Source: Escherichia coli
GTDB taxonomy: Bacteria; Pseudomonadota; Gammaproteobacteria; Enterobacterales; Enterobacteriaceae
DNA: 64,000 bases
NCBI RefSeq assembly: GCF_003334405.1
Contig: NZ_QOWM01000016.1
Reading direction: 5' to 3' (one strand)
The notes under the pieces: generated by a model
What the model was told of the DNA's origin: nothing
Databases searched by the model: none
What the model saw: the letters and a program-made list of their open reading frames with translations, nothing else
In this document: positions 128-60,252 of the stretch, in pieces
Position numbering within the stretch: position 1 is the first letter of the stretch
Layout: every line of letters starts with the position of its first letter
Made by a program: the position numbers and the translations under genes

Positions 128-3140
<3,013 letters not shown>

Positions 3141-3977
3141 ATGACCGTATTACATAGTGTGGATTTTTTTCCGTCTGGTAACGCGTCCGTGGCGATAGAA
3201 CCCCGGCTCCCGCAGGCGGATTTTCCTGAACATCATCATGATTTTCATGAAATTGTGATTGTCGAACATGGCACGGGTATTCATGTGTTTAATGGGCAGC
3301 CCTATACCATCACCGGTGGCACGGTCTGTTTCGTACGCGATCATGATCGGCATCTGTATGAACATACCGATAATCTGTGTCTGACCAATGTGCTGTATCG
3401 CTCGCCGGATCGATTTCAGTTTCTCGCCGGGCTGAATCAGTTGCTGCCACAAGAGCTGGATGGGCAGTATCCGTCTCACTGGCGCGTTAACCACAGCGTA
3501 TTGCAGCAGGTGCGACAGCTGGTTGCACAGATGGAACAGCAGGAAGGGGAAAATGATTTACCCTCGACCGCCAGTCGCGAGATCTTGTTTATGCAATTAC
3601 TGCTCTTGCTGTGTAAAAGCAGTTTGCAGGAGAACCTGGAAAACAGCGCATCACGTCTCAACTTGCTTCTGGCCTGGCTGGAGGACCATTTTGCCGATGA
3701 GGTGAATTGGGATGCCGTGGCGGATCAATTTTCTCTTTCACTGCGTACGCTACATCGGCAGCTTAAGCAGCAAACGGGACTGACGCCTCAGCGATACCTG
3801 AACCGCCTGCGACTGATGAAAGCCCGACATCTGCTACGCCACAGCGAGGCCAGCGTTACTGACATCGCCTATCGCTGTGGATTCAGCGACAGTAACCACT
3901 TTTCGACGCTTTTTCGCCGAGAGTTTAACTGGTCACCGCGTGATATTCGCCAGGGACGGGATGGCTTTCTGCAATAA
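3141..3977 (+). CDS. rhaS: AraC-family activator of rhaBAD and rhaT
   Basis: 278-aa [44 protein letters not shown]..., C-terminal AraC HTH; AGGAGG RBS at 3130..3135. Confidence 0.95.
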
Positions 3978-4050
3978 CGCGAATCTTCTCAACGTATTTG
4001 TACGCCATATTGCGAATAATCAACTTCGTTCTCTGGCCGAGGTAGCCACG

Positions 4051-4899
4051 GTGGCGCATCAGTTAAAACTTCTCAAAGATGATTTTTTTGCCAGCGACCA
4101 GCAGGCAGTCGCTGTGGCTGACCGTTATCCGCAAGATGTCTTTGCTGAACATACACATGATTTTTGTGAGCTGGTGATTGTCTGGCGCGGTAATGGCCTG
4201 CATGTACTCAACGATCGCCCTTATCGCATTACCCGTGGCGATCTCTTTTACATTCATGCTGACGATAAACACTCCTACGCTTCCGTTAACGATCTGGTTT
4301 TGCAGAATATTATTTATTGCCCGGAGCGTCTGAAGCTGAATCTTGACTGGCAGGGGGCGATTCCGGGATTTAACGCCAGCGCAGGGCAACCACACTGGCG
4401 CTTAGGTAGCATGGGGATGGCGCAGGCGCGGCAGGTTATCGGTCAGCTTGAGCATGAAAGTAGTCAGCATGTGCCGTTTGCTAACGAAATGGCTGAGTTG
4501 CTGTTCGGGCAGTTGGTGATGTTGCTGAATCGCCATCGTTACACCAGTGATTCGTTGCCGCCAACATCCAGCGAAACGTTGCTGGATAAGCTGATTACCC
4601 GGCTGGCGGCTAGCCTGAAAAGTCCCTTTGCGCTGGATAAATTTTGTGATGAGGCATCGTGCAGTGAGCGCGTTTTGCGTCAGCAATTTCGCCAGCAGAC
4701 TGGAATGACCATCAATCAATATCTGCGACAGGTCAGAGTGTGTCATGCGCAATATCTTCTCCAGCATAGCCGCCTGTTAATCAGTGATATTTCGACCGAA
4801 TGTGGCTTTGAAGATAGTAACTATTTTTCGGTGGTGTTTACCCGGGAAACCGGGATGACGCCCAGCCAGTGGCGTCATCTCAATTCGCAGAAAGATTAA
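4051..4899 (+). CDS. rhaR: AraC-family activator of rhaSR
   Basis: Track ORF 3877..4899 extends upstream into rhaS; the currently accepted 282-aa product starts at GTG 4051 ([13 protein letters not shown]...), an older 312-aa model starts at ATG 3961. AraC-type HTH at the C-terminus. Confidence 0.85.
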
Positions 4900-5930
4900 T
4901 TCGCCATGCCGATGCCGACGATGTTAGCGGCGACAATAATCACCACACAACCGAGGCTCAACACCGTTACCGGACGGCGTCCTGCATTGTTCCACTCTTT
5001 CAGCACCAGCCCGACGATACCGCCGCACAATACATAGAAACTCATATGCAGCATCCAACTGATGTAGTCATACTGCGCCGGAATGCGGGCGTGGCCCCAG
5101 GCATAGAAAAAGAATTGCAGATACCACATCAACCCGCCCAGTGTCGAGAGTAACACATTGTGAATGATCAGCGATTTTGCCAGCGAGAAGTCGGCTTTTA
5201 GCGACAAATCCTTCACTTTTGCCAGACGAATAAAACAGAAACCGAGGTTAATGATCGCGCCGCCGCCCATGATGACAACATAGCTTGGCAGAGCGACATA
5301 CAGTGGATCGACGCCAAGTGCGGCAGCGGCTTCATGCATCGGTTTTGCGGCGTTCATCGCAAAGGACATCCCGGCAGAGAAAATGCCGCACATCACCGCC
5401 AGCACCAGCCCTTTTTTCAGATTGAACTCTTCGGCTTTAATGCCCATCTTGCGCTCTTTCAACTGCCCGGCGCGAGTTACAATCCCTACGCCAATCAGCG
5501 CCACCAGAACGCCGAGCAACGTCATGCGTCCGCCTTCGGTGCTAATCAACACATCGAAATTGCCGTTGATAATTGGCGTCATCAGCGTACCGACAATCAA
5601 CGTAATGCCAATGGCGATGCCAATTCCCATCGACATGCCGAGATAACGCATGGTCAGGCCGTAGTTGATATTACCGATCCCCCACATAGCGCCGAACAGA
5701 AAAACAGGCAGTAGCGTAGAGAGACTAAACGAGCTGTAATACGCCCAGAAATTCGGTAGTAACAGGGCGCTGATGGCCCACGGCAGAATAATCCACGAAA
5801 CAATCCCACCGACTGACCACATGGTTTCCCATGACCATTTTTTTACTTTTTTGAACGGAGCGTAAAAACAGGCTGCACTGGCCGCGCCGATCAAATGCCA
5901 AAATATCCCCATCGTAATCGCGTTACTCAT
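4896..5930 (-). CDS. rhaT: L-rhamnose-proton symporter
   Basis: 344-aa polytopic membrane [37 protein letters not shown]...; stop codon overlaps the rhaR stop. Confidence 0.95.
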
Positions 5931-6121
5931 CTTCTTATCCTCATCATTTTTCGTCGCGTCACATCTCCGACGAGATGAGTGTAAAAATCGTGCTGTCGAT
6001 TAACCTTTCGCCTGTTGCCGCCGTTGTCGATTTACTGGCAATCACGGCATTAAGTGGGTGATTTGCTTCACATCTCGGGCATTTTCCTGCAAAACCATAC
6101 CCTTACGAAAAGTACGGCATT

Positions 6122-6160
6122 GATAATCATTTTCAATATCATTTAATTAACTATAATGAA
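6122..6160 (+). promoter_or_regulatory. sodA promoter with putative Fur box and -10 TATAAT
   Basis: GATAATCATTTTCAATATCATTTAATTAAC resembles the Fur consensus GATAATGATAATCATTATC; TATAAT at 6152..6157, about 60 bp upstream of the sodA ATG. Confidence 0.5.
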
Positions 6161-6214
6161 CCAACTGCTTACGCGGCATTAACAATCGGCCGCCCGACAA
6201 TACTGGAGATGAAT

Positions 6215-6835
6215 ATGAGCTATACCCTGCCATCCCTGCCGTATGCTTACGATGCCCTGGAACCGCACTTCGATAAGCAGACCATGGAAATCCACCACAC
6301 CAAACACCATCAGACCTACGTAAACAACGCCAACGCGGCGCTGGAAAGCCTGCCAGAATTTGCCAACCTGCCGGTTGAAGAGCTGATCACCAAACTGGAC
6401 CAGCTGCCAGCAGACAAGAAAACCGTACTGCGCAACAACGCTGGCGGTCACGCTAACCACAGCCTGTTCTGGAAAGGTCTGAAAAAAGGCACCACCCTGC
6501 AGGGTGACCTGAAAGCGGCTATCGAACGTGACTTCGGCTCCGTTGATAACTTCAAAGCAGAATTTGAAAAAGCGGCAGCTTCCCGCTTTGGTTCCGGCTG
6601 GGCATGGCTGGTGCTGAAAGGCGATAAACTGGCGGTGGTTTCTACTGCTAACCAGGATTCTCCGCTGATGGGTGAAGCTATTTCTGGCGCTTCCGGCTTC
6701 CCGATTATGGGCCTGGATGTGTGGGAACATGCTTACTACCTGAAATTCCAGAACCGCCGTCCGGACTACATTAAAGAGTTCTGGAACGTGGTGAACTGGG
6801 ACGAAGCAGCGGCACGTTTTGCGGCGAAAAAATAA
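6215..6835 (+). CDS. sodA: manganese superoxide dismutase
   Basis: Track ORF 6209..6835 trimmed to [36 protein letters not shown] (206 aa); Mn/Fe-SOD signature residues. Confidence 0.95.
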
Positions 6836-9006: not shown

Positions 9007-10380
9007 TTAACTCCGCTTATACAGCGGCAACCAAATCACCAGCCGTAAACCGCCCAGCGGGCTGTCTTCTGCCTTCACCCAGCCACGATGCTGCTGAATG
9101 GCGGTTTCAACAATCGCCAGCCCCAAACCTGTACCGCCAGATTCACGATCGCGTGCTTCATCGGTACGATAGAACGGACGGAAAATCTGTTCGCGATCTT
9201 CCGGGCTAACGCCAGGACCATCGTCGTCCACCGTAATGGTGATACCGTCTTTATCTACCGCAAAGCCCACTTCAATCTTCGTATGGGAATAACGCAGAGC
9301 ATTACGAACAATGTTTTCCAGCGCACTTTCCAGGGCGTTCGGATTGCCGTACAGCGGCCACGGCCCAGGCGGGAAGTTAACTGTCAACGACTTGCCCATT
9401 TGCTCGGCTTCGAACGCCGCGTTATCCAGCACTTCACTCCACAACTGGTTGGCTTTGATGGTTTCGCTAACCAGCGCGTTTTTTTGCTGATTACGTGACA
9501 TCACCAACAGATCGTTGATCATGCTGTCCAGACGTTGCGCTTCGGTTTCAATACGCTCCAGTTCCTTGCTTTCACCGCTACGACGGCGCAGTAACGCCGT
9601 ACCCAGTTGCAGACGCGTCAGCGGGGTGCGCAGCTCGTGAGAGATATCAGAAAGCAGACGCTGCTGAGAGGTCATCATGCGCTCCAGCGCGGTGACCATC
9701 TGGTTAAAACTGGCACCTGCGGCAAGGAATTCCTGTGGCCCCGCTTCCAGTTCCGGGTGCTGGCGTAAGTTTCCCTGGGCAACTTCATCGGCAGCGTTTT
9801 TCAGCTTACGCGCCGGTTTTGCCAGACTCCAGGCCAACCACAACAGCAGCGGCGTACTGACCAACATGGTGACAATCAGCAGTAATAGCGGGCGGTCAAA
9901 CAGTAAGTTAATGAAATCGGATTGAGAACTGCTGGCCGGACGAATCAGATAAAGTTGGTAATTATCTTCGCCATCACGCACGGAGAACGGACCGACCAGT
10001 TCCACGCGGCCATACTTTTTCTTCTGCGGATGATCGGCGTTATCGGCCTGACCAATAAAGTTACGAATGATCTGCATTTCGCTGCGTTCAGCGCCGATCA
10101 CGCGGCCTTCGGTGGTCACCAATAACAAACGCTGTCCTGGCGGTGCCCACTTATCAATCGCCCGGAACAGACGCCGCCACCACATTAAATCGTTGGGCGG
10201 ATCGTTCGCCAGCTCCGCTTCGACATGCTGCTCAATCATCAGCCCCTGACGCTGTTCGCTATCCAGAAGCTCGGTCATCTGGCGTGAATCGAGCTTGGGT
10301 AACATCAAAACCAACATCAACACCAGCGCCAGCGTCAGCCAGAAGATGGCGAAGATGCGCGCGGTTAAGCTGCCTATCAT
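9007..10380 (-). CDS. cpxA: envelope-stress sensor histidine kinase
   Basis: 457-aa ORF, MIGSLTARIFAIFWLTLALVLMLVLMLPKLDSRQ...; H-box SDISHELRTPLTRL; 4-bp ATGA overlap with cpxR. Confidence 0.95.
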   Translation of the reverse strand: MIGSLTARIFAIFWLTLALVLMLVLMLPKLDSRQMTELLDSEQRQGLMIEQHVEAELANDPPNDLMWWRRLFRAIDKWAPPGQRLLLVTTEGRVIGAERSEMQIIRNFIGQADNADHPQKKKYGRVELVGPFSVRDGEDNYQLYLIRPASSSQSDFINLLFDRPLLLLIVTMLVSTPLLLWLAWSLAKPARKLKNAADEVAQGNLRQHPELEAGPQEFLAAGASFNQMVTALERMMTSQQRLLSDISHELRTPLTRLQLGTALLRRRSGESKELERIETEAQRLDSMINDLLVMSRNQQKNALVSETIKANQLWSEVLDNAAFEAEQMGKSLTVNFPPGPWPLYGNPNALESALENIVRNALRYSHTKIEVGFAVDKDGITITVDDDGPGVSPEDREQIFRPFYRTDEARDRESGGTGLGLAIVETAIQQHRGWVKAEDSPLGGLRLVIWLPLYKRS

Positions 10381-19126: not shown

Positions 19127-19130
19127 CCGC

Positions 19131-49399: not shown

Positions 49400-51697
49400 A
49401 TGACGAATCGTATCTCTCGCCTCAAAACTGCACTGTTTGCCAATACCCGTGAAATCTCGCTGGAGCGGGCGCTGCTTTATACCGCCAGCCATCGGCAAAC
49501 CGAAGGCGAACCGGTGATATTGCGCCGGGCGAAAGCAACAGCGTATATCCTTGAACATGTTGAAATTTCGATTCGTGATGAAGAACTGATTGCCGGTAAC
49601 CGCACCGTAAAACCGCGCGCCGGGATTATGTCGCCGGAAATGGACCCTTACTGGCTGCTGAAAGAGCTGGATCAATTCCCGACGCGTCCGCAGGACCGCT
49701 TTGCTATCAGCGAAGAAGATAAACGTATCTACCGTGAAGAGTTGTTCCCGTACTGGGAAAAACGTTCGATGAAAGATTTCATCAACGGGCAGATGACAGA
49801 TGAAGTAAAAGCCGCGACCAACACGCAGATTTTCAGCATCAACCAGACGGATAAAGGCCAGGGGCACATTATTATTGATTACCCACGCCTGTTGAATCAC
49901 GGGCTGGGTGAGCTGGTGGCACAGATGCAGCAACATTGTCAGCAACAGCCGGAGAATCACTTTTATCAGGCCGCGTTGTTACTGCTGGAAGCCTCGCAGA
50001 AACACATTTTGCGTTACGCCGAACTGGCGGAAACGATGGCGGCAAACTGCACAGATGCCCAGCGTCGCGAAGAGCTGCTGACTATTGCAGAGATCTCCCG
50101 CCATAACGCGCAACATAAGCCGCAGACGTTCTGGCAGGCGTGCCAGTTATTCTGGTACATGAACATCATTCTGCAATACGAATCCAACGCCAGTTCGCTA
50201 TCGTTGGGGCGCTTCGACCAGTATATGTTGCCGTTCTATCAGACATCATTAACCCAGGGCGAAGATGCGGCGTTCCTGAAAGAACTGCTCGAATCTTTAT
50301 GGGTGAAATGCAACGACATCGTGCTGTTGCGCTCCACCAGTAGCGCGCGTTATTTCGCCGGTTTCCCGACCGGCTATACCGCACTGCTCGGCGGGTTAAC
50401 CGAGAACGGACGTAGCGCGGTGAACGTGCTTTCGTTCCTTTGCCTTGACGCCTATCAAAGCGTGCAATTACCGCAACCGAACCTCGGCGTGCGCACTAAC
50501 GCCTTGATCGACACGCCGTTCCTGATGAAAACCGCCGAAACCATTCGCTTCGGCACCGGTATTCCGCAAATCTTTAACGATGAAGTGGTGGTGCCAGCGT
50601 TCCTCAACCGTGGCGTTTCGCTGGAAGATGCGCGCGACTATTCCGTAGTGGGCTGTGTGGAATTATCTATTCCCGGCAGAACCTACGGCTTGCATGACAT
50701 CGCGATGTTTAATCTGCTGAAAGTGATGGAAATCTGCCTGCATGAAAATGAAGGCAATGCTGCGCTGACTTATGAAGGTTTACTGGAGCAGATCCGCGCC
50801 AAGATCAGCCACTACATCACCCTGATGGTTGAGGGCAGCAATATTTGTGATATCGGCCATCGCGACTGGGCACCTGTACCGCTGCTCTCATCGTTTATCA
50901 GCGATTGTCTGGAAAAAGGCCGCGATATTACCGATGGCGGCGCGCGTTATAACTTCTCCGGCGTACAGGGGATCGGTATCGCCAACCTGAGCGATTCTCT
51001 CCATGCGTTGAAAGGGATGGTTTTTGAGCAACAGCGTTTAAGTTTTGACGAATTGCTGTCGGTATTAAAAGCCAACTTCGCAACGCCAGAAGGCGAAAAA
51101 GTCCGCGCTCGCTTAATTAACCGCTTCGAGAAATACGGTAACGATATCGACGAGGTGGATAACATCAGCGCCGAACTGTTGCGCCACTACTGCAAAGAAG
51201 TGGAAAAATACCAGAACCCGCGCGGCGGCTACTTCACGCCGGGATCGTATACCGTTTCTGCTCACGTCCCGTTGGGATCGGTGGTTGGCGCGACGCCAGA
51301 CGGTCGTTTTGCCGGAGAACAGCTGGCAGACGGCGGCTTGTCACCCATGCTGGGCCAGGACGCACAAGGGCCAACAGCGGTACTGAAGTCAGTCAGTAAG
51401 CTCGATAACACGCTGCTGTCTAACGGTACGTTGCTGAACGTGAAATTCACTCCGGCGACCCTGGAAGGTGAAGCAGGATTACGCAAACTGGCCGACTTCT
51501 TACGGGCGTTTACCCAGCTTAAGTTACAACATATTCAGTTTAACGTGGTGAACGCCGACACGTTGCGGGAAGCGCAACAGCGCCCACAAGATTATGCCGG
51601 GCTGGTGGTGCGCGTTGCCGGATACAGCGCCTTCTTTGTCGAACTGTCGAAGGAGATCCAGGATGACATCATCCGCCGGACAGCGCATCAGCTGTAA
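49400..51697 (+). CDS. pflD: glycyl-radical enzyme, PFL family (annotated formate acetyltransferase 2)
   Basis: 765-aa ORF; C-terminal glycyl-radical motif RVAGYSA (Gly codon at 51620..51622); active-site loop VGCVE (Cys codon 50654..50656, Glu 50660..50662). Confidence 0.9.
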   Translation: MTNRISRLKTALFANTREISLERALLYTASHRQTEGEPVILRRAKATAYILEHVEISIRDEELIAGNRTVKPRAGIMSPEMDPYWLLKELDQFPTRPQDRFAISEEDKRIYREELFPYWEKRSMKDFINGQMTDEVKAATNTQIFSINQTDKGQGHIIIDYPRLLNHGLGELVAQMQQHCQQQPENHFYQAALLLLEASQKHILRYAELAETMAANCTDAQRREELLTIAEISRHNAQHKPQTFWQACQLFWYMNIILQYESNASSLSLGRFDQYMLPFYQTSLTQGEDAAFLKELLESLWVKCNDIVLLRSTSSARYFAGFPTGYTALLGGLTENGRSAVNVLSFLCLDAYQSVQLPQPNLGVRTNALIDTPFLMKTAETIRFGTGIPQIFNDEVVVPAFLNRGVSLEDARDYSVVGCVELSIPGRTYGLHDIAMFNLLKVMEICLHENEGNAALTYEGLLEQIRAKISHYITLMVEGSNICDIGHRDWAPVPLLSSFISDCLEKGRDITDGGARYNFSGVQGIGIANLSDSLHALKGMVFEQQRLSFDELLSVLKANFATPEGEKVRARLINRFEKYGNDIDEVDNISAELLRHYCKEVEKYQNPRGGYFTPGSYTVSAHVPLGSVVGATPDGRFAGEQLADGGLSPMLGQDAQGPTAVLKSVSKLDNTLLSNGTLLNVKFTPATLEGEAGLRKLADFLRAFTQLKLQHIQFNVVNADTLREAQQRPQDYAGLVVRVAGYSAFFVELSKEIQDDIIRRTAHQL

Positions 51698-52542: not shown

Positions 52543-52884
52543 ATGGCATACCTGGTGGCAGTAACCGCCTGCGTAAGCGGCGTGGCGCATACTTATATGG
52601 CGGCGGAACGGCTGGAAAAGTTGTGCCTGTTAGAGAAGTGGGGAGTCAGCATTGAAACTCAGGGCGCGCTGGGAACGGAGAATCGTTTAGCGGATGAGGA
52701 TATCCGCCGGGCGGATGTTGCTCTGTTGATTACGGATATCGAGCTTGCCGGTGCCGAGCGATTTGAACATTGCCGCTATGTGCAATGCAGCATCTACGCA
52801 TTCCTGCGTGAGCCGCAGCGGGTAATGAGCGCGGTGCGCAAAGTGCTTTCTGCGCCGCAGCAAACCCATCTTATTCTGGAGTAG
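52543..52884 (+). CDS. frwD: fructose-like PTS IIB-type component
   Basis: Track ORF 52480..52884 trimmed to MAYLVAVTACVSGVAHTYMAAERLEKL (113 aa); paralogous to frwB (same TAC.SGVAHTYMAAE motif). Confidence 0.85.
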   Translation: MAYLVAVTACVSGVAHTYMAAERLEKLCLLEKWGVSIETQGALGTENRLADEDIRRADVALLITDIELAGAERFEHCRYVQCSIYAFLREPQRVMSAVRKVLSAPQQTHLILE

Positions 52885-59100: not shown

Positions 59101-60252
59101 TTAATGCCAGCAAAAATGGTGAATTACCTGGGTTATCAGTTCGCGGGTGGGCTTGATAAACCGTGTTTCCAGATATTCATCAGGTTGATGAGCCTGATTA
59201 ATTGAGCCAGGCCCCAACACCAGCGTCGGGCATAACGTTTGAATAAACGGCGCTTCGGTACAGTAGTTCACCACTTCGGTTTTTGCTCCGAGCAATTTCT
59301 CAACCACTTCAACCAGTTGATGATTCGGTGGGCATTCATAGCCAGGGATCGGCGGATGCAGCTCGTCGACCGTCAGACGACCCGGCCAGCGTTCGCTCAC
59401 CGGAGCCAATGCATCGTTGAGCAAACCATTAAGTTCATTGAGTGTCATGCCAGGCAGCGGACGAATATCCATATGCAACTCACAGCAAGCGCAAATACGG
59501 TTAGAAGCGTCGCCACCGTGAATATGCCCGAGGTTGAGCGTAGGGTATGGCACGGTAAACGCTTCGTAGTGATAACGTTCTTTCAGGTTATCGCGCAATT
59601 GCAAAATATGCCCGATGGCGTCGTGCATTAGTTCGATAGCGTTAACTCCGCGTGCTGGATCGCTGGAGTGCCCCGACTGGCCCTGAATACGGATGGCGTT
59701 AGAGATATGACCTTTATGTGCGCGTACCGGTTGTAGTGACGTCGGTTCGCCAATGATGGCGCAATCCGGGCGCAGGGCGGTAGTTTCGGCAAAATAACGC
59801 GCTCCGGCCATACTGGTTTCTTCATCAGCAGTCGCCAGAATGTAGAGCGGTTTTTTCAGTTTCGTGACGTCGACATCGCGTAGCGCATCAAGGATAAACG
59901 CAAAAAAGCCTTTCATGTCGGCGGTGCCTAAGCCGTAAAGCTTGCCGTCATGCTCCGTCAGTGTAAACGGATCGCGCGTCCAGCGACCGTCATCAAATGG
60001 CACCGTATCGGTATGCCCCGCCAGCAACAAGCCGCCAGCCCCCTGTCCGATACTTGCCAGCATATTGAATTTGTTGCGAGTTCCTGGAACAGGCTGCACT
60101 TCCACATTGAAGCCCAAATCTTTAAACCAGTCCGCCAGCAGAGTGATTAAATCTGCATTGCTTTGATCGAGTGCCTCTTCCGTGGCGCTTATTGAAGGTG
60201 TGGCAATCAGAGCGCGGTAAATCTCGATAAATGGCGGTAATTTGTTTTTCAT
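59101..60252 (-). CDS. argE: acetylornithine deacetylase
   Basis: Track ORF 59101..60291 trimmed to [35 protein letters not shown] (383 aa); M20 peptidase family. Confidence 0.93.

Follow-up and report, generated by a model that had tools for sequence, protein, structure and literature searches.

Organisation and conservation of the rhaR-rhaT junction

The convergent rhaR and rhaT genes of Escherichia coli end in an ordinary 4-nt tail-to-tail overlap of the commonest convergent class (YTAR), which is trivial as a coincidence of bases yet conserved rather than a one-off. In the 64-kb window, i.e. the whole stretch of DNA analysed, the TTAA tetramer common to both stops lies at positions 4896-4899 (both strands) within ...cagaaagaTTAAttcgcc..., as read directly from the sequence; the junction stretch may also be given as ...CAGAAAGATTAATTCGCC..., with TTAA at the same positions. 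The original prediction had placed the rhaR stop codon TAA at 4897-4899 and the rhaT stop codon TAA on the complement of 4896-4898. Both positions agree with the sequence and the RefSeq annotation, the former also with the ORF list and the latter with a - strand ORF at 4896-5930. Two bases (4897-4898) are common to both stop codons, and the coding sequences overlap by 4 nt. The tight convergent arrangement of the stops was thus correctly described, but "zero intergenic distance" was slightly imprecise, the true spacing being -4.

The rhaR gene (4051-4899, + strand), second in the rhaSR operon, encodes an AraC-family L-rhamnose-responsive activator, and rhaT (4896-5930, - strand) encodes the L-rhamnose/H+ symporter. 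These identities and the convergent orientation, which had been proposed from the sequence, were confirmed by RefSeq annotation and NCBIfam matches. The rhaS gene occupies 3141-3977 on the + strand (RefSeq), and by the logic of the operon (PMC9429829) the rhaSR transcript passes through rhaR towards rhaT. The sodA gene is annotated in RefSeq at 6215-6835 (+ strand).

The modal overlap in prokaryotes is 4 bp, and the four-base sequences of convergent stop-stop overlaps, CTAA, TTAA, CTAG and TTAG, were named by Lillo & Krakauer 2007 (PMC2174442), who put the number of convergent overlaps in E. coli at 58 and found a predicted Rho-independent terminator in only 20% of the genes involved. The rhaR-rhaT pair has the features of a 4-nt convergent stop-stop overlap, namely tail-to-tail coding sequences, a YTAR tetramer and genuine gene ends. 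As in the class of Lillo & Krakauer, both strands read an in-frame stop within TTAA, the other three tetramers are used at the same site in relatives, and, as for most genes of the class, no intrinsic terminator is predicted. Nothing essential is different, and rhaR-rhaT is notable only for the shared regulon and co-induction of its members. The overlap is already known, being annotated in every RefSeq E. coli genome, belonging to a described class and appearing as a catalogued transcript pair.

Of 5426 complete E. coli genomes, 5401 gave megablast matches to a 40-nt query centred on TTAA. Within a 40-mer, any exact megablast word of 28 nt includes query positions 13-28; TTAA occupies positions 19-22 and is thus necessarily part of the exact seed, so that all 5401 genomes carry the tetramer unaltered, i.e. 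at least 5401/5426. The window is chromosomal E. coli DNA. Several RefSeq genomes match its 3.2-kb stretch 3000-6200 at 100% identity, and this stretch was found in 5425 of the 5426 complete genomes; over its full 64 kb, the window has only 14 differences from strain 300709.

Both stops were also located in one locus per species from 80 Enterobacteriaceae species. The spacing of rhaR and rhaT is -8 in two species, -4 in 20 (Escherichia, Citrobacter, Salmonella, Atlantibacter, Trabulsiella and Intestinirhabdus) and 0, with abutting stops, in 29 (Enterobacter, Kosakonia, Lelliottia, Pseudocitrobacter and others). It is +4 to +10 in a further 12 species (Klebsiella, Raoultella and Kluyvera) and +26 to +117 in nine; three species carry insertions of 1.1-2.1 kb between the genes, and five have a locus without a convergent rhaR. 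Overlapping stops (-8 or -4) therefore occur in 22/80 species and a gap of 10 nt or less in 63/80, indicating that the tight tail-to-tail layout is old and family-wide. Persistence of the spacing at 10 nt or less in these 63 species could mean that the tight arrangement is selected rather than neutral. Among the 20 species with a spacing of -4, all four possible tetramers (TTAA, CTAA, TTAG and CTAG) are in use.

The two gene ends behave differently. The length of rhaT is 344 codons in 75/75 species compared and the position of its stop is invariant, whereas beyond the conserved W-R-H/Q the tail of RhaR differs between species in both sequence and length. In E. coli, the tail that reaches into rhaT is LNSQKD after WRH, and it is poorly conserved.

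Foreign genes lie between rhaT and rhaR in three species, and the junction therefore tolerates insertions. In Enterobacter quasihormaechei (L038:4036-5181), the insert lies exactly between the two genes and comprises a YafO-family toxin gene and, upstream of it, a 190-aa ORF. Klebsiella spallanzanii (L035:4036-6175) has a 701-aa ORF at this site, and Buttiauxella sp. A111 (L078:3174-4820) has two ORFs (307 and 161 aa), all three of them with no NCBIfam match.

Transcription termination around the junction

A consensus scan for intrinsic-terminator-like sites (a hairpin followed by a T-run) revealed none near 4896-4899 on either strand. The strongest hairpin on either strand within the 4200-5700 span scanned is a stem-loop predicted on the rhaT-sense RNA at 4847-4886 (- strand; + strand form 4852-4881), with an energy of -19.9 kcal/mol. 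It spans 9-49 nt past the rhaT stop, and its core GAUGACGCC-N8-GGCGUCAUC at 4880-4855 starts 16 nt past the stop. The stem-loop is encoded by the RhaR codons M-T-P-S-Q-W-R-H, the stem being formed by ATG-ACG-CC (M-T-P) and GG-CGT-CAT (W-R-H). It is followed by CCCGGGUAAA, which includes no U-tract, and hence it does not qualify as an intrinsic terminator. A second small stem-loop, CCCGG-UUUC-CCGGG at 4841-4854 (- strand), adjoins the first one on its 3' side in the rhaT-sense RNA and is followed by UAAACACC, again with no U-tract. With a negative scan and no U/A tracts at the 4847-4886 hairpin, an intrinsic or bidirectional terminator at the junction was rejected. A known RNA family at the junction was likewise rejected, as Rfam, searched at permissive E-values, yielded no more than two chance hits, both below threshold and away from the junction.

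In the SEnd-seq work of Ju et al. 2019, convergent genes reportedly share bidirectional intrinsic terminators. The hairpin in rhaR is similar in that its stem is palindromic and forms on both strands between convergent units. Unlike those terminators, it has no U/A tracts on either side and is not intergenic, and on the rhaSR mRNA it is located upstream of the stop, where translating ribosomes would melt the stem.

Candidate Rho loading regions were found on both strands. The rhaSR read-through RNA has a rut-like, C-rich and G-poor stretch (C 33-40%, G 15-22%) at 4926-5081 (+ strand), beginning ~27 nt past the rhaR stop. The rhaT read-through RNA, which is antisense to rhaR, has a C>G stretch at 4350-4557 (- strand), ~340-550 nt past the rhaT stop. 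The C>G bias at 4926-5081 and 4350-4557 is a general property of DNA antisense to coding sequence and so only weak evidence of a specific rut site. A stem-loop of the protective kind was found past the rhaT stop only, the best hairpin in the rhaSR read-through RNA having an energy of -7.1 kcal/mol within 120 nt and -12.3 kcal/mol within 800 nt past the rhaR stop.

As reported by Dar & Sorek 2018 (PMC6061677), the steady-state 3' ends of Rho-dependent E. coli transcripts are precise and located just downstream of stable stem-loops without U-runs, and rut sites lie downstream of such stem-loops. The rhaT-sense RNA resembles the ends described there, with a predicted stem-loop lacking a U-run past the stop and C>G stretches downstream. 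It differs in that this stem-loop falls within coding sequence belonging to the opposite gene and in that the nearest - strand C>G stretch is ~340 nt away rather than immediately downstream; moreover, no comparable hairpin follows the stop in the rhaSR transcript. No nucleotide-resolution 3'-end or Rho-dependence data for rhaSR or rhaT were found in the sources consulted; rhaS, rhaR and rhaT are absent from the E. coli Term-seq supplements of PMC7815308, and the supplements of PMC10349824 have no rha entries either. The absence of rha genes from the Term-seq supplements is presumably due to silence of the regulon without rhamnose.

Proposed explanation of the overlap

As a whole, the junction is very probably best explained by an ordinary overlap arising from a drifting RhaR tail, with overlap of the transcripts, Rho termination and trimming, and no dedicated role. 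This explanation builds on the geometry, the conservation and the absence of intrinsic terminators observed above, and takes transcript overlap and co-induction by rhamnose from published work (PMC12288877, PMC9429829, PMC11434101). The position of the rhaT stop is evolutionarily fixed, and the short unconserved C-terminal tail of RhaR drifts in length; in the clade of Escherichia, Citrobacter and Salmonella, the tail happens to end on the TA that it has in common with rhaT. As there is neither intergenic space nor a hairpin-plus-U terminator, each RNA polymerase must pass its own stop into the antisense strand of the neighbour, and therefore the transcripts overlap.

After release of the ribosome, the untranslated antisense RNA would be terminated by Rho inside the opposite gene, and 3' exonucleases would trim the rhaT mRNA back to the stem-loop 4886-4847 inside rhaR. 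Rho-dependent termination is inferred from the lack of a nearby intrinsic terminator, and termination with trimming is suggested by the match of a stem-loop without a U-tract and downstream C>G stretches to the anatomy described by Dar & Sorek (PMC6061677).

The overlap is of little importance, and the rhaT 3' hairpin embedded in rhaR is a mildly interesting extra. For engineering of the rha locus or deletion of rhaT or rhaR, it should be noted that an edit of TTAA alters both stops and that editing the last ~50 nt of rhaR alters the region just downstream of rhaT.

Conservation and possible role of the hairpin inside rhaR

The 4847-4886 stem-loop may be a 3'-end protector of the rhaT mRNA, and the chance that the embedded hairpin has a real function is roughly even or less. 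If it stabilises the rhaT mRNA, it would represent a 3' UTR element that is constrained by, and constrains, the coding sequence of the convergent gene, and would make a modest addition to knowledge of Rho-dependent 3' ends.

A competing reading is that the stem-loop has no RNA function and is a by-product of the RhaR motif M-T-P-x-Q-W-R-H, with the rhaT 3' ends being diffuse; its probability is somewhat short of one half. The codons ACG-CC and GG-CGT are mutually reverse complementary, and the palindrome is thus partly forced by the peptide motif, in keeping with a stem made entirely of codons for conserved residues. Energies speak for the same reading. The best hairpins in the region have a median energy of -15.5 kcal/mol, as compared with -7 to -14.7 kcal/mol in control 100-nt windows from the same loci, and folding of the whole region gave z-scores of -1.3 and -1.4. 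A hairpin exceptional by energy alone was therefore rejected, the values being modestly better than in controls with z ~ -1.4.

The pattern of codon use is less easily reconciled with a by-product. Thr270 is encoded by ACG in 71/75 species and His276 by CAT in 44/44, yet at the third position of the adjoining Pro codon, at the edge of the loop, all four bases occur across species. In post hoc tests that ignore phylogeny, synonymous diversity in rhaR is at its lowest across codons 253-276, a level reached by only 2 of 203 windows, and no such dip is present at the rhaT 3' end in the same species comparison. By the same post hoc kind of test, 11 species with CGC at Arg275 or an equivalent change retain a G.U pair on the rhaT-sense RNA, where the rhaR-sense RNA has an A.C mismatch; the opposite asymmetry, with pairing kept only on the rhaR-sense RNA, was seen in none. 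The conservation of synonymous sites and the strand asymmetry are suggestive, hinting at selection on the RNA structure of the rhaT strand. On the other hand, terminal pairs that G.U pairing would tolerate on the rhaT strand (His CAC and Thr ACA) are never seen, which fits codon inertia and hence a by-product.

A further point against a by-product comes from Klebsiella, Raoultella and Kluyvera, in which the M-T-P/W-R-H stem is weakened (CGG, Gln) but another hairpin is present. In these genera (L050, L051, L052, L055, L056 and L058), a perfect 10-bp hairpin GCGGCAACGC-GACU-GCGUUGCCGC is located 8-14 nt past the rhaT stop, in the region ~8-33 nt beyond it (e.g. L050:4044-4067). It is encoded by the RhaR tail W-R-Q-R-S-R-V-A-A and stands in for the weakened stem, an apparent case of hairpin turnover. 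The RhaS paralogue was uninformative as a control, since it lacks a T-P-x-x-W-R motif (C-terminus NWSPRDIRQ) and the motif search matched an unrelated site.

These data leave dual use of the rhaR 3' end, as the RhaR C-terminus and as a selected opposite-strand 3'-terminal protective stem-loop of the rhaT mRNA, as a tentative and rather unlikely proposal. Were it correct, a functional rhaT 3' UTR would be situated entirely inside the coding region of the convergent neighbour, and the same need would be met by the M-T-P/W-R-H codons in Escherichia, Citrobacter, Salmonella and Enterobacter, and by the 10-bp stem in the RhaR tail in Klebsiella, Raoultella and Kluyvera.

Transcript overlap and co-induction of rhaSR and rhaT

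The claim that the rhaR and rhaT transcripts necessarily overlap holds as a matter of logic and is further supported by an RNA-seq listing (PMC12288877). Since the stop codon is necessarily part of each mRNA, at least 4 nt are transcribed on both strands, and because there is no intrinsic-terminator-like site near the junction, the overlap realistically exceeds 4 nt. In Table 1 of the ExcludonFinder study of 2025 (PMC12288877), rhaR-rhaT is among 165 convergent pairs of E. coli MG1655 with overlapping transcripts, the criterion for listing being an RNA-seq-defined overlap in 50% or more of 58 MG1655 transcriptomes. Directly after it in the list come uspD-fpr and frwD-yijO, the other two tightest convergent pairs of the window.

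Both transcription units respond to the same sugar. RhaR activates rhaSR and RhaS activates rhaT, in both cases with L-rhamnose and CRP (PMC9429829), and rhaBAD, rhaRS and rhaT were found by RNA-seq to rise together on rhamnose (PMC11434101). The pair resembles excludons (PMC12288877) in being listed there by name and in having the short intergenic distance typical of the class; however, the concept implies mutually exclusive expression, whereas rhaSR and rhaT share L-rhamnose as the activating signal.

A functional excludon-like module, in which collision of RNA polymerases and/or cleavage of the sense-antisense RNA duplex by RNase III tunes the rhamnose regulon, is accordingly an improbable reading, albeit one with several points in its favour. 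RhaS-activated transcription of rhaT could, for example, exert negative feedback by damping rhaSR, or the effect could run the other way. Besides inclusion of rhaR-rhaT in the E. coli 'excludome' (PMC12288877), such a module would fit simultaneous induction of rhaSR and rhaT by rhamnose (PMC9429829, PMC11434101), upon which the polymerases would meet, the near-zero spacing kept in 63/80 species and the lack of a terminator shielding either gene. However, excludon partners are mutually exclusive, and rhaSR and rhaT are co-induced and both needed on rhamnose. The entry in PMC12288877 is a coverage-threshold call from transcriptomes for which no induction by rhamnose is stated, and no functional test accompanies it. 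Spacers of 26-117 nt in 9/80 species and insertions of 1.1-2.1 kb in 3/80 indicate that tightness is dispensable, and negative feedback on rhaSR is already documented in the form of RhaS binding at PrhaSR (PMC9429829). No interference experiment on rhaSR and rhaT was found in the literature, and the published data show co-induction instead.

The overlap itself is probably without a dedicated regulatory role, and such a role for rhaR-rhaT is improbable. Convergent co-induced transcription could only in principle act as an additional built-in brake on the rhamnose regulon.

Gene ends and other overlaps in the window

Neither gene ends earlier than annotated, as both proteins match NCBIfam equivalog models end to end. 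RhaR aligned with NF010027 over positions 1-282 of 282 (568.8 bits, cutoff 384) and RhaT with NF010021 over 1-344 of 344 (763.9 bits, cutoff 509). The ORF list and translations showed no earlier in-frame stop in rhaR or rhaT, and homology fixes the reading frames up to 17 nt (RhaR, W-R-H) and 0 nt (RhaT, ...GMAN) before the stops. An annotation artefact, with one gene ending earlier and hence no overlap, could appeal to the variation of the last six RhaR residues between clades but is effectively refuted by the ORFs, the frames fixed by homology, the full-length equivalog matches and the invariant length of RhaT, and its probability is negligible. Early termination of either gene, the finding that would have spoken against the original prediction, was therefore looked for and not seen.

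At its other end, the rhaR frame is open further upstream to a GTG at 3877 (340 aa; 3877-4899, + strand), overlapping the end of rhaS. In RefSeq, rhaR begins with the GTG at 4051; alignment of the RhaR equivalog model over 1-282 from this start favours the shorter form.

The 64-kb window includes eight convergent pairs, two of which overlap and a third of which is separated by 4 nt. Their spacings are -14 (frwD/yijO), -4 (rhaR/rhaT), +4 (uspD/fpr), +26, +54, +60, +84 and +105. The overlap of frwD with yijO, which also encodes an AraC-family regulator, comprises 14 nt at 52871-52884, and the 4 nt between the convergent uspD and fpr genes are at 19127-19130. Co-directional overlaps of the ordinary operon type occur in rhaB/rhaA (4 nt, 1384-1387) and cpxR/cpxA (4 nt, 10377-10380). 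Longer co-directional overlaps were observed in pflD/pflC (35 nt, 51663-51697) and between argE and an upstream gene for a hypothetical protein (13 nt, 59101-59113).
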